Positions 44,713 through 46,733 are shown, numbered from the stretch's first letter. The stretch: DNA of 64,000 nucleotides from Candidatus Sumerlaeota bacterium (GCA_016931035.1 JAFGFN010000181.1:3664-67663); one strand, 5' to 3'. Program-made: numbers and translations. The notes: generated by a model from the letters alone, not told the origin.

Positions 44713-46002
44713 ATGATCGATTACGATCAATTCGTTCTTCCGGAGAATCCCATCCTGGAAGATCATCTTGTCGCGACCTATCTGTTGCGCACCTCGGCGC
44801 CGGACCTGCTCCAGCTCGCCGCGACGATGGCGACCGAGCAGACCGTCGGCACGTGGATCGGCGTCCCCGGCGAGACGCGCGAGATGCTCCGCAAACACAG
44901 GGGCAAAGTCCTCAACGTCTGGGAGATTCCCGATATCGAGAACGACGTGTCGCGCTCCGAGCGCGGCGACCGGCGCGAGTGCGTCGTCCAGATCGCCTAT
45001 CCGTCGTGCAACTTCGGCGGCCAGATCCCGATGATTCTGACCACGGCTTTCGGCAACATCTCGATGATCGGCGACATCAAACTCCTCGATCTCGCCTTTC
45101 CGAGAACGCTCACCGCCCAACTCCCCGGTCCCCGCTTCGGAATCCCGGGTGTGCGCGACCTCCTGGGCGTGGCGGAACGTCCGCTTCTCAACACGATGAT
45201 CAAGCCGTCGACCGGGATCACGCCCGAACAGGGCGCGGAACTGCTCTACGCCGCGGCCGTCGGCGGCACCGACATCGTCAAGGACGACGAGGTCCTTCCC
45301 GACACGGATTTCTCGCCCGCGCTTCGGCGCGTCGAACTCTATATGAAGAATCTCCGCCGGGCCGAGGCCGAGACGGGCGAGAAGAAGATCTATACGGTCA
45401 ACGTGACCGACGAACCCGAGCGCTGCCTGCGTCGGGCCGAAGCGGCGGTCGAGGCCGGGGCCAACGGCGTCATGATCAACTTTCTGACCGCGGGCATCGC
45501 GCTTCTTTCGTCCCTCGCGCGCAACCCGAAGATCCGCGTCCCGATTCTCGCGCATCTGGATTTCGGAGGCGCGCTCTATGCCAGCCCTCGTCACGGAATC
45601 AGCTCGCCTCTTCTCTACGGCAAGCTGGCGCGTCTGGCCGGGGTCGATTTGGTCACGATTCCCACTCCCTACGGCAAGTTCGCGCTCACGCGCGAGAAGT
45701 ATCTTCGGTCGATCCTCGGTCTGCGCGGCGATCTCCACGACACGCGCGCCGCGTGGCCGATCGTCGGAGGGGCGATCAAACAAGGCCACCTCCCGCAGCT
45801 CTTCTCCGACCTGGGACGCGACTTCGTCGTCGGAGCGGGCGGCGCGATCTACGCCCACCCGATGGGACCGACCGGCGGGGCCAAAGCCTTCCGCCAAGGG
45901 ATCGACGTCGTGATGAAACGCGGGACGTTCGACGGCGCGGAGAAGGAGTACCCCGAGCTCGCCGCCGCCGTCGAGCGATGGGGATCGAGCGTCGAGAGGT
46001 AG
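44713..46002 (+). CDS. RuBisCO-like protein (form IV RLP, ribulose-bisphosphate carboxylase large-subunit family)
   Basis: MIKPSTGITPEQGAELLYAAAVGGTDIVKDDEVL corresponds to the RuBisCO large-subunit active-site region, with an altered KPKLG-equivalent. The start is taken at MIDYDQ (44713); the longest ORF starts at 44653. Confidence 0.75.
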   Translation: MIDYDQFVLPENPILEDHLVATYLLRTSAPDLLQLAATMATEQTVGTWIGVPGETREMLRKHRGKVLNVWEIPDIENDVSRSERGDRRECVVQIAYPSCNFGGQIPMILTTAFGNISMIGDIKLLDLAFPRTLTAQLPGPRFGIPGVRDLLGVAERPLLNTMIKPSTGITPEQGAELLYAAAVGGTDIVKDDEVLPDTDFSPALRRVELYMKNLRRAEAETGEKKIYTVNVTDEPERCLRRAEAAVEAGANGVMINFLTAGIALLSSLARNPKIRVPILAHLDFGGALYASPRHGISSPLLYGKLARLAGVDLVTIPTPYGKFALTREKYLRSILGLRGDLHDTRAAWPIVGGAIKQGHLPQLFSDLGRDFVVGAGGAIYAHPMGPTGGAKAFRQGIDVVMKRGTFDGAEKEYPELAAAVERWGSSVER

Positions 46003-46073
46003 GCGAGAGGGACGCGTGAGTCGCGGACTTCGCCCCAAGATACGAGAAAGCGAGAGACTAGGAGGAAGAACTC

Positions 46074-46733
46074 ATGGCGGGCAAACGATTTGCGCTCCTG
46101 CACACCTCGGCCACCTTGGCCCCGATCTTCAAGTCGCTCTGCGACGAACTGATTCCGGGCGCCGATTTCTTTCACATGGTCGACGAAAGTCTCATCCAGA
46201 ACACGATCCGAGCGGGTCGTCTGACCCCCGCGACGGCCCAGCGCGTCGTCCGGCACCTGGCCGCGGCCGAGCAGGCGGGGGCCGAGGTCGCGATGGTCAC
46301 CTGTTCGTCGATCGGCCCGGCCGTGGATGGCGCCCAGCCGTTTCTCGGGATTCCCGCCCTGCGCGTCGATCGACCGATGGCCGACAAGGCGGTGACGATC
46401 GGGCGGCGGGTCGGGGTGCTCGCCACGTTGAACACGACGCTCGAGCCGACGGCTTCGCTCATCGTTCGCCGCGCCGAGGCTGCGGGCAAGGAGATCGATC
46501 TTCAAGACCGGCTGTGCGAAGGCGCCTTCGACGCGTTCCTGGCGGGCGACATGGCCAAGCACGACGCCATGGTTCGCGAAGGGCTGAAGGACCTGGGCGG
46601 TCGCGTCGATTTGATCGTTCTGGCCCAGGTCTCGATGGCGCGGGTGGCCGATTCGCTCGACGAAAGCGAAAAGCCGGTCCCGATTCTCACAAGCCCGCGT
46701 CTCGGGGTTGAGTATTTGGCCCAAATGCTGTAG
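46074..46733 (+). CDS. Asp/Glu/hydantoin racemase family protein
   Basis: 219 aa. FALLHTSATL...MVTCSSIG...VLATLNTT...DLIVLAQVSM is the pattern of the two-Cys-dyad racemase / arylmalonate-decarboxylase superfamily. Confidence 0.6.
   Translation: MAGKRFALLHTSATLAPIFKSLCDELIPGADFFHMVDESLIQNTIRAGRLTPATAQRVVRHLAAAEQAGAEVAMVTCSSIGPAVDGAQPFLGIPALRVDRPMADKAVTIGRRVGVLATLNTTLEPTASLIVRRAEAAGKEIDLQDRLCEGAFDAFLAGDMAKHDAMVREGLKDLGGRVDLIVLAQVSMARVADSLDESEKPVPILTSPRLGVEYLAQML

Follow-up and report, generated by a model that had tools for sequence, protein, structure and literature searches.

What an RuBisCO-like protein (RLP) might be doing among enzymes of pectin degradation is the question raised by a stretch of 64,000 nt from Candidatus Sumerlaeota (63% GC; hereafter the window), the + strand of which encodes, in this order, GH106, GH2, GH78, GH127, an RLP, an Asp/Glu-racemase-like protein, a GDSL esterase and a GH106-like protein. 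The original prediction, which placed an RLP next to an Asp/Glu-racemase-family protein at 44713-46733, was exact in its coordinates, and Pfam confirms both families. The pair was also rightly assigned to the company of rhamnogalacturonan-II (RG-II) glycosidases, as can be seen both from its GH127, GH78 and GH2 neighbours and from recurrent clusters found elsewhere. Quite probably, the window holds a module of the DUF1537/RLP type that is linked to RG-II and acts on an acid sugar. The narrower proposal made here from gene neighbourhood, namely that the RLP and the racemase-fold protein form an undescribed module for the catabolism of aceric acid, is held with about even confidence; it is the aceric-acid module that would be new, RLP/DUF1537 acid-sugar pathways being of an already known kind.

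L-Aceric acid (3-C-carboxy-5-deoxy-L-xylose) is a sugar acid of RG-II chain B, in which apiose is found as well. RG-II is often called the most complex plant glycan, and while its depolymerisation has been mapped, the fate of free aceric acid is undescribed in the literature searched, where no account of its catabolism was found, including in connection with RuBisCO-like proteins, decarboxylases or kinases. The GH127 protein encoded directly upstream of the window RLP passes the NCBIfam equivalog model NF049879, named 'aceric acid hydrolase' (993 bits, cut-off 950), and has no obvious signal peptide. It shares 58% amino acid sequence identity over its full length with the GH127 of a Spirochaetaceae locus (L014) in which an RLP, a kinase and a racemase-like protein are encoded together. 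All six GH127 proteins tested from the clusters described below (five full-length ones and a truncated one from Chitinophagaceae) exceed 950 bits as well, with scores of 977-1154. The window protein and seven module-adjoining relatives pass a model built for BT1003, a GH127 enzyme of the RG-II degradation system of Bacteroides thetaiotaomicron, which is the characterised aceric acid hydrolase (PMC13501991). BT1003, however, has been described just as a part of the depolymerising apparatus, whereas the GH127 of the window adjoins a catabolic module of cytoplasmic appearance.

The recurrence of this arrangement was established by a cluster search that began from the racemase-fold protein and is thus independent of the RLP. 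An RLP and a DUF1537 kinase are encoded in all three racemase-like gene contexts that were inspected, namely those of Nonomuraea rubra (GntR, racemase, RLP, kinase and ABC transporter, with GH95 nearby), of a metagenome contig (RLP, kinase, racemase, the organic-anion transporter SBF, a GH140-like gene and pectate lyase) and of a Chitinophagaceae contig (L092; GH127, RLP, kinase, racemase, SBF, GH2 and, farther along, GH106). A family-alignment scan of metagenome contigs provided 80 further-annotated loci, the annotation being made by tblastn against a coordinate-defined panel. In these metagenome loci the gene directly 5′ of that for the racemase-like protein is the kinase gene in 41 of 54 cases, an RLP gene lies 5′ of it in 32 of 39, SBF follows directly 3′ in 41 of 49, and GH127 is situated less than 400 bp 5′ of the RLP gene, on the same strand, in 13 of 29. 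The recurrent order is aceric acid hydrolase, RLP, OiaK-like DUF1537 kinase, racemase-like protein and SBF, and a homologue of the window GH2 gene recurs 3′ of the SBF gene. The cluster spans phyla, being represented in Sumerlaeota (the window), Spirochaetaceae (L014) and Chitinophagaceae (L092). Its kinases score best against OiaK (370-462 bits), and its usual RLPs are OiaX-like (379-522 bits, under the cut-off of 700) and 31-34% identical to that of the window. The minimal clusters, composed of genes for the racemase-like protein, RLP, kinase and transporter, encode no NAD-dependent enzyme, dehydrogenase or lactonase.

Two further features of the racemase-like loci were observed. A protein of ~470 aa with an L-fucose-isomerase C-terminal domain is encoded a few genes 3′ of the cluster at 10852-12279 of L092, 12135-13544 of L133 and 13062-14477 of L152. 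At L112 and L115 (also L099 and L139), a racemase-like/SBF pair stands without RLP or kinase, neither of which is encoded within 10 kb at L112 and L115; in these loci the pair is preceded by genes for L-threonine 3-dehydrogenase and glycine C-acetyltransferase, both passing equivalog cut-offs, and followed by GH78 and GH140-like genes.

The window agrees with the recurrent cluster in having GH127 directly 5′ of the RLP gene (a gap of 84 bp, same strand) and an orthologous racemase-like protein with all of the invariant residues, and it departs from the cluster in having an RLP that is not OiaX-like and neither an OiaK-like kinase nor SBF in 64 kb. The 71-bp gap between the RLP and racemase-like genes is the position occupied by the kinase gene in other clusters. 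The racemase-like protein of the window shares 59-63% identity with its counterparts from the GH127-type clusters (L090-L092, L001), as against 37-41% with a subgroup from Desulfobacterales-type loci of the RLP clade T1, to which the window RLP belongs (see below). Two loci connect the types. At L001, a kinase-racemase-SBF operon encodes a kinase and a racemase-like protein 65% and 73% identical, respectively, to those of a cluster with an OiaX-like RLP (L091), and the sole RLP of this locus is of T1, 75% identical to that of the window, and encoded among GH78, two GH140-like genes, RhaT and rhaM. L014 encodes a T1 RLP, kinase, racemase-like protein, GH140-like protein and GH127. Judged from these two loci and from the identity of its racemase-like protein, the window holds the same module with the RLP swapped. 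The two types of RLP appear to be interchangeable in the module, and it seems that two lineages sharing just ~31% identity came to occupy one slot by independent recruitment, the window having the rarer type, which is a sister of MtnW.

A separate observation concerns the OiaX-like branch. On plasmid p2 of Cupriavidus pinatubonensis (L094, 4282-11774), genes for an SDR, an alpha/beta hydrolase, an RLP, a DUF1537 kinase and a TRAP transporter lie beside otnK-otnC. The active-site pattern of this RLP (E60, N123, S177, R295, W298, H327, K334) is exactly that of the RLPs in the GH127-type clusters, whereas OiaX has D60, G123 and Q327, which suggests a functional subdivision within the branch.

The RLP of the window starts with the ATG at 44713 and stops at 46002, its homologues aligning from MIDYDQF; the GTG at 44653, the start of a listed longer ORF, was rejected because the homologues begin at that motif. 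The GC content at third codon positions of the RLP and racemase-like genes (0.81-0.82) is that of genuine genes in a sequence of such base composition. Pfam recognises both RuBisCO_large (PF00016, 163 bits) and RuBisCO_large_N (PF02788, 38.9 bits), and the protein stays below every NCBIfam cut-off, scoring 362.7 bits against MtnW NF007095 (cut-off 409), 323.7 against TIGR03332 (513.6), 246.8 against the type III RuBisCO model (497) and 191 against OiaX NF042437 (700). Its best solved relatives are MtnW (2OEK; 287 bits, ~38% identity) and then a Chlorobium RLP (229 bits), with far lower scores for an RLP from Burkholderia (147 bits) and for 3QFW (103 bits), an RLP of 378 aa from R. palustris. 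Among plasmid-borne genes, the products of genuine OiaX genes are ~28% and those of mtnW ~38% identical to the window RLP, rhizobial OiaX proteins sharing 27-28% and that of R. johnstonii 26.8%. Homologues at 63-77% identity fall into more than 120 clusters. In a neighbour-joining tree, for which form I, form II, two MtnW, OiaX and Cupriavidus RLP references were taken from annotated records, the window RLP sits in a tight clade of 24 sequences (T1, or RLPa; 61-77% identity), the sister of which is an uncharacterised clade, T2 (46-51% identical); MtnW comes next, and OiaX with its relatives forms a separate branch.

The active site was numbered as in RuBisCO by way of the form I sequence of C. 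necator. The window RLP keeps E60, T65, W66, N123, K175, K201, D203, E204, H294, K334, G403 and G404 and carries the substitutions K177S, R295L, H298G, H327T, S379G and G381A, a pattern that is invariant or nearly so across T1. Since the metal ligands and the carbamylated Lys (K201, D203, E204; KDDE motif) are intact, the RLP is not a dead gene; a pseudogene with the Lys/Asp/Glu ligands lost, a case the original prediction had allowed for, was accordingly rejected, the ORF being intact and conserved. A bona fide RuBisCO was rejected as well, in view of the substituted K177, R295, H327 and S379. The earlier assignment to form IV, unlike the CO2-fixing enzyme, therefore stands, several ribulose-bisphosphate-binding residues being substituted while K201, D203 and E204 are kept. 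E60, N123 and K334 are the residues that, in RuBisCO, enclose CO2 as it enters as well as the carboxylate group of the intermediate with six carbons; that they are kept would agree with action on a carboxylated keto-sugar phosphate. Of the two phosphate sites of RuBisCO, the distal one has been lost (R295L, H327T) and the proximal Gly-Gly one remains, which would fit a monophosphate substrate.

The best NCBIfam and PDB matches of the RLP, as listed above, are those to MtnW (YkrW), and Joint Genome Institute (JGI) annotations name many of its homologues 2,3-diketo-5-methylthiopentyl-1-phosphate (DK-MTP-1-P) enolase. MtnW is also its closest characterised relative, with the same fold, with K175, K201, D203, E204 and H294 in common and with the distal phosphate site likewise lost. 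Nevertheless, the chance that the protein is a methionine-salvage enolase, or a related 5-methylthio- or 5-deoxy-pentulose phosphate isomerase, is close to negligible. Both enolase cut-offs are missed, and the placement with respect to the methionine-salvage clade, rightly singled out earlier as a point to be checked, turned out to be that of a sister outside the clade. Lys98 of G. kaustophilus MtnW, at the position of RuBisCO N123, is taken here to be the catalytic general base; this position is Lys ('FGKLS') in both MtnW references but Asn ('FGNIS') in the window RLP and all 24 members of T1, which moreover keep E60 and K334, absent from MtnW. The RLP is therefore not MtnW. Neither the window nor any of the 27 T1 loci (the window included) contains mtnK, mtnA, mtnB or mtnX, all of which are present at the genuine mtnW locus of P. 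megaterium. As for the related isomerases, 3QFW, which we assume to be RLP1 and presumably of the DeepYkr clade (5-methylthioribulose-1-phosphate (MTRu-1-P) 1,3-isomerase), is the structure matched at a weak 103 bits.

The RLPs of the sister clade T2 (loci L019-L084; Chloroflexota, Syntrophomonadaceae, Theionarchaea and others) carry K177C and are encoded in the company of an FGGY kinase (32 loci) and of PEP_hydrolase-like, UPF0261, class-III aminotransferase and 2-phosphosulfolactate-phosphatase-like genes. As this context differs, T2 was set aside as uninformative for the window locus.

The neighbourhood of clade T1 was compared with the window over loci L001-L018, L035, L085-L089, L178 and L179. 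Whether they come from genomes or from metagenomes, the 26 T1 loci that could be assessed all encode a DUF1537 kinase, mostly directly after the RLP gene and sometimes overlapping it. These kinases reach 370-444 bits against the OiaK model, and far lower scores against OtnK (148-195) and DtnK (62-92). Because the kinase beside the genuine OiaX of R. johnstonii itself reaches just 477 bits, the OiaK cut-off of 700 bits is narrow, and the T1 kinases are about equally OiaK-like. The usual transporters of T1 loci are of carboxylate type (TRAP, TTT, SBF). From the OiaK-like kinase and the carboxylate transporters it follows that the T1 clade takes part in the DUF1537 type of acid-sugar catabolism. 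The remaining partners vary: GntR, cupin, RLP, kinase and a Zn-dependent alcohol dehydrogenase (Zn-ADH) are found together in Desulfobacterales, and TRAP, glyoxalase, kinase, class II aldolase, DeoC, YCII, SDR and RLP in Alphaproteobacteria. The loci with the RLPs closest to that of the window (L010-L012, L086, L087, L178 and L179; 75-77% identity) encode a xylose-isomerase-like TIM barrel, a beta-keto acid cleavage enzyme (BKACE), RLP and kinase, frequently together with a split transketolase, PdxA and Zn-ADH; this looks like another acid-sugar pathway.

The second protein of the pair matches Pfam Asp_Glu_race (PF01177) at 63.5 bits and no NCBIfam family. Its homologues, mostly of 217-232 aa, number more than 7,000 at E ≤ 1e-10. 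Multiple alignment of the family reveals two invariant motifs, TCSS (with C77) and LAQxSM (with Gln185). In profile alignments, C77 falls on the first catalytic Cys of the Pyrococcus aspartate racemase (1JFL) and the hydantoin racemase 2EQ5, and Gln185 on the second catalytic Cys of allantoin/hydantoin racemases (5LFD, 3QVJ). With an invariant Gln in place of the second catalytic Cys, no two-base racemisation is to be expected; judged by these residues, the protein is a one-base enzyme, two-Cys racemisation being excluded. Its AlphaFold2 model (pLDDT 94.6) has the racemase fold, and the best Foldseek matches are Glu/Asp racemases (TM 0.75-0.78) at 14-18% identity, no solved relative exceeding 18%. 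What it shares with the Asp/Glu/hydantoin racemases is thus the fold and the position of the first catalytic Cys, together with Thr/Ser-rich loops that could bind a carboxylate. An enzyme of the single-Cys type of arylmalonate decarboxylase (AMDase) was also considered and rejected: the two Cys positions are occupied by Gly and Cys, in this order, in AMDase, the mirror image of the window protein (Cys first, Gln second), and AMDase structures rank merely 45th-50th in the fold search with the model.

Among known systems, the closest counterpart is the D-apionate module ApnO-OiaK-OiaX/OiaT (Carter et al. 2018, as cited in PMC6302742, PMC10176493 and PMC12994016), in which the described trio is ApnO-OiaK-OiaX (PMC12994016). 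Both modules have three parts, namely an enzyme from which a branched 3-oxo acid results, an OiaK-type kinase of the DUF1537 family and, for the branched beta-keto acid once phosphorylated, an RLP, and they have in common the tie to a branched sugar of RG-II, carboxylate-type transporters and GntR-type regulators. The window-type module differs in lacking ApnO, instead of which it has the cofactor-free, single-Cys racemase-fold protein; in the window, moreover, the RLP is of another clade, the adjoining glycosidase is an aceric acid hydrolase and the kinase is missing. The pRL12 locus of R. johnstonii encodes OiaX, the kinase, a 6-phosphogluconate-dehydrogenase-C-terminal-like protein, a sugar ABC transporter and a Gfo/Idh/MocA dehydrogenase. 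The third of these proteins, which is presumably ApnO and served as the ApnO query, has no homologue in the window or in ~180 related loci. An RLP recruited to a branched-chain sugar by way of a carboxylated sugar-acid phosphate is likewise known from the D-hamamelose pathway, where it is reported to be an oxygenase (Kim, Lim and Lee 2018, as cited in PMC10176493); the known functions of RLPs thus already cover two branched sugars, apiose and hamamelose (PMC10176493).

A previously undescribed route for L-aceric acid can be outlined on this model, in which a single-Cys racemase-fold enzyme makes a 3-C-carboxy-2-ketose, an OiaK-like kinase phosphorylates it and an RLP of either lineage removes or transfers the carboxyl group. 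The substrate, the order of the steps and each of the reactions are what we infer, and the scheme as a whole is a tentative one. GH127 would free L-aceric acid from RG-II chain B, and the cytoplasmic module would consume it. In the first step, the racemase-fold enzyme would bind the C3 carboxylate and carry out a one-base proton transfer, most simply an isomerisation of the aldose to the 2-ketose, giving 3-C-carboxy-5-deoxy-L-xylulose, HOCH2-CO-C(OH)(COO-)-CH(OH)CH3, the methyl homologue of 3-oxo-isoapionate; it would thereby fill the place held by ApnO in the apionate pathway. As aceric acid, unlike apiose, is oxidised to the level of an acid from the outset and carries its carboxyl on a tertiary carbinol carbon, no redox enzyme would be needed, in keeping with minimal clusters devoid of a dehydrogenase. 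The 2-ketose, being 3-oxo-isoapionate plus one methyl group, would therefore suit an OiaK-like kinase and then the RLP. The kinase, present in essentially all related loci though not in the window, would phosphorylate the primary C1 hydroxyl in the second step. In the third, the carbamyl-Lys/Mg site of the RLP would decarboxylate the 2-carboxy-3-keto-type phosphate to an enediolate and hence to 5-deoxy-pentulose 1-phosphate, which amounts to the carboxylated-intermediate chemistry of RuBisCO run in reverse. The latter product would be cleaved by a class II (RhaD/FucA-type) aldolase into dihydroxyacetone phosphate and acetaldehyde. Some T1 loci do include genes for a class II aldolase and DeoC, and it is plausible that the product is accepted by rhamnulose- or fuculose-phosphate aldolases that these organisms possess. 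Alternatively, transcarboxylation and hydrolysis by the RLP could yield 3-phosphoglycerate and lactate, as OiaT does on the apiose intermediate. Such chemistry would explain both the one-base enzyme at the position of ApnO and the choice of an aceric acid hydrolase as the fused glycosidase.

A number of points weigh against this proposal. The substrate of the module is read solely from gene neighbourhood; the metagenome loci are not phylogenetically independent, and 16 of the 29 assessable metagenome clusters have no GH127 directly 5′. GH140-like genes, of the apiosidase family, lie near some clusters (L001, L014, L091, L115), and most T1 loci contain no genes of carbohydrate-active enzymes (CAZymes) and encode BKACE, xylose-isomerase-like, split transketolase, PdxA, Zn-ADH or cupin proteins. 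Aceric acid has no hydrogen alpha to its carboxylate, so that the usual chemistry of the racemase superfamily is impossible with it. The role of the racemase-fold protein is accordingly the weakest link of the scheme: it would have to remove the proton from C2, the carbon adjoining the aldehyde, unless it acts at a later stage of the pathway. The protein with the L-fucose-isomerase C-terminal domain could be the real aldose-ketose isomerase for aceric acid or another RG-II sugar. Lastly, the window is the sole T1 locus of 27 without a DUF1537 kinase within ~10 kb, and the apiose-pathway kinase which the original prediction proposed to look for nearby did not materialise, as tblastn with four DUF1537 kinases gave no match in the window at E ≤ 1; SBF, class II aldolase and cupin queries gave none either.

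The GH140-like genes bear on the catabolism of apiose or apionate, in which the RLP would act on 3-oxo-isoapionate 4-phosphate like OiaX/OiaT, with the racemase-fold enzyme supplying or processing the intermediate. The cluster kinases, best matched by OiaK, and the OiaX-like RLPs that usually accompany the racemase-like family speak for it too, as do split transketolases resembling apulose-4-phosphate transketolase in several T1 loci and the occurrence of apiose, like aceric acid, in chain B. Apiose, however, is a neutral aldose, the known routes of which proceed by oxidation to apionate and subsequent oxido-isomerisation, whereas the minimal clusters are without the dehydrogenase and lactonase required for apionate. 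The OiaX cut-off is missed by a wide range by the window RLP (191 bits against 700, 27-28% identity) and is reached by none of the OiaX-like partner RLPs, ApnO is absent from the window and ~180 loci, and the fused gene encodes a GH127 aceric acid hydrolase, not an apiosidase. An apiose pathway is hence rather improbable. Of the roles first suggested for the RLP, a branched sugar-acid step remains the best reading, while the link to apiose through OiaX/OiaT is unsupported and probably does not hold, given the score, the missing ApnO, the minimal clusters without dehydrogenase or lactonase and the GH127 fusion.

It is somewhat less doubtful, if still unlikely, that the module handles some other acid sugar or a downstream product, such as tetronate, 4-deoxy-tetronate or a fragment derived from 3-deoxy-lyxo-heptulosaric acid (Dha) or 3-deoxy-manno-octulosonic acid (Kdo); the adjacency of GH127 would then reflect shared RG-II regulation, and the racemase-fold protein would be an alpha-hydroxy-acid 2-epimerase or tautomerase. 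The mostly CAZyme-free T1 loci, in which carboxylate transporters (TRAP, TTT or ABC) and an assortment of redox enzymes are encoded, agree with such a role, and further acid sugars are probably among the substrates of the clade at large. DUF1537 kinases are known, by their NCBIfam names, for four-carbon acid sugars, some racemase-SBF pairs occur with neither RLP nor kinase within 10 kb (L112, L115), and enzymes of the racemase fold normally work by removing a proton alpha to a carboxylate. Yet the kinases match OtnK and DtnK (scores above) much less than OiaK, the second catalytic Cys that two-base epimerisation would use is the invariant Gln, and co-regulation by itself hardly accounts for a same-strand fusion to the specific gene of an aceric acid hydrolase that is repeated in three or more phyla.

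The missing kinase and SBF could also mean that the window RLP is a decaying or orphan remnant of a module that, with its kinase lost, no longer functions. This seems very improbable, as the ORF is intact, the conserved catalytic residues are all kept, the codon composition is normal and the gene is tightly packed into a run on one strand. The kinase may lie elsewhere in the fragmented genome. It may further be conjectured that aceric acid is freed inside the cell, GH127 having no obvious signal peptide, in which case an importer would be unnecessary.

If the aceric-acid proposal is true, the gap concerning the fate of this sugar acid would be closed, and RLPs would gain a further physiological function, again with a branched sugar, which bears on the evolution of the carboxylation chemistry of RuBisCO. 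It would also provide the first function for the very large family (>7,000 sequences) of one-Cys racemase-fold proteins and a clear case of non-orthologous displacement among RLPs.

The features of the locus are listed below.

Coordinates of the genes and signals around the RLP gene in the window.
Feature	Position	Strand	Evidence
GH106 alpha-L-rhamnosidase, 931 aa	32021-34816	+	Pfam Glyco_hydro_106, 243.7 bits
GH2 beta-galactosidase-like protein, 1138 aa	34832-38248	+	Pfam GH2 N-terminal, TIM-barrel, LacZ_4, Bgal_small_N
GH78 alpha-L-rhamnosidase, 1123 aa	38641-42012	+	Five Bac_rhamnosid Pfam domains
Promoter-like site	42244-42273	+	10/12 consensus match; inside the 586-bp gap 5′ of GH127
GH127, aceric acid hydrolase type, 676 aa	42598-44628	+	Pfam GH127 catalytic, middle and C-terminal domains; NCBIfam NF049879
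RLP, form IV, 429 aa	44713-46002	+	Pfam RuBisCO_large and RuBisCO_large_N
Asp/Glu-racemase-fold protein, 219 aa	46074-46733	+	Pfam PF01177
GDSL/SGNH esterase, 267 aa, hydrophobic N-terminal stretch	46835-47638	+	Pfam Lipase_GDSL_2, Lipase_GDSL
Two terminator-like hairpins	47633-47702	+	Directly past the esterase stop codon; positional support
GH106-like protein, 1042 aa	47794-50922	+	Pfam Glyco_hydro_106, 59.7 bits, partial match

The promoter-like site may, from its position, mark the start of a GH127-RLP-racemase-esterase transcription unit; promoter-like and terminator-like matches across the region are no more numerous than expected by chance or in shuffled controls. As to the neighbour that had been labelled CE12, a GDSL/SGNH esterase is indeed encoded, while the CE12 label itself goes back to the GDSL Pfam matches and a weak score against the PaeY pectin acetylesterase model (74.8 bits, far under its cut-off); by sequence, the protein is a candidate CE12-like pectin or rhamnogalacturonan acetylesterase.

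Farther 5′, a pectate lyase, two pectinesterases and further pectin-related genes are found. The pectin locus contains no SBF, TRAP or ABC sugar transporter gene. Within it, two large membrane-type proteins with DUF6785 and DUF6784 domains are encoded in tandem on the + strand (27627-29687 and ~29700-31813) and may be uncharacterised transporters of pectin fragments. The same run includes, also on the + strand, genes for two proteins of ~480 aa with no significant Pfam match (19072-20505 and 24261-25721), one of them showing merely a faint match to bacterial TSP3 repeats. Converging on the end of the glycosidase run from the - strand, 50939-52363 encodes a Gfo/Idh/MocA oxidoreductase of 474 aa with weak matches, e.g. 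17.8 bits to the glycoside 3-dehydrogenase family; with the Gfo/Idh/MocA protein of the R. johnstonii apiose locus as query, no match was obtained in the window, this gene included. Finally, genes for a GNAT acetyltransferase, two D-Ala-D-Ala-ligase-like ATP-grasp proteins and a lysine-2,3-aminomutase-like radical SAM protein are grouped at 3453-9209 on the - strand and may constitute a small cluster for beta-lysine or peptide modification, separate from the matter of the RLP.

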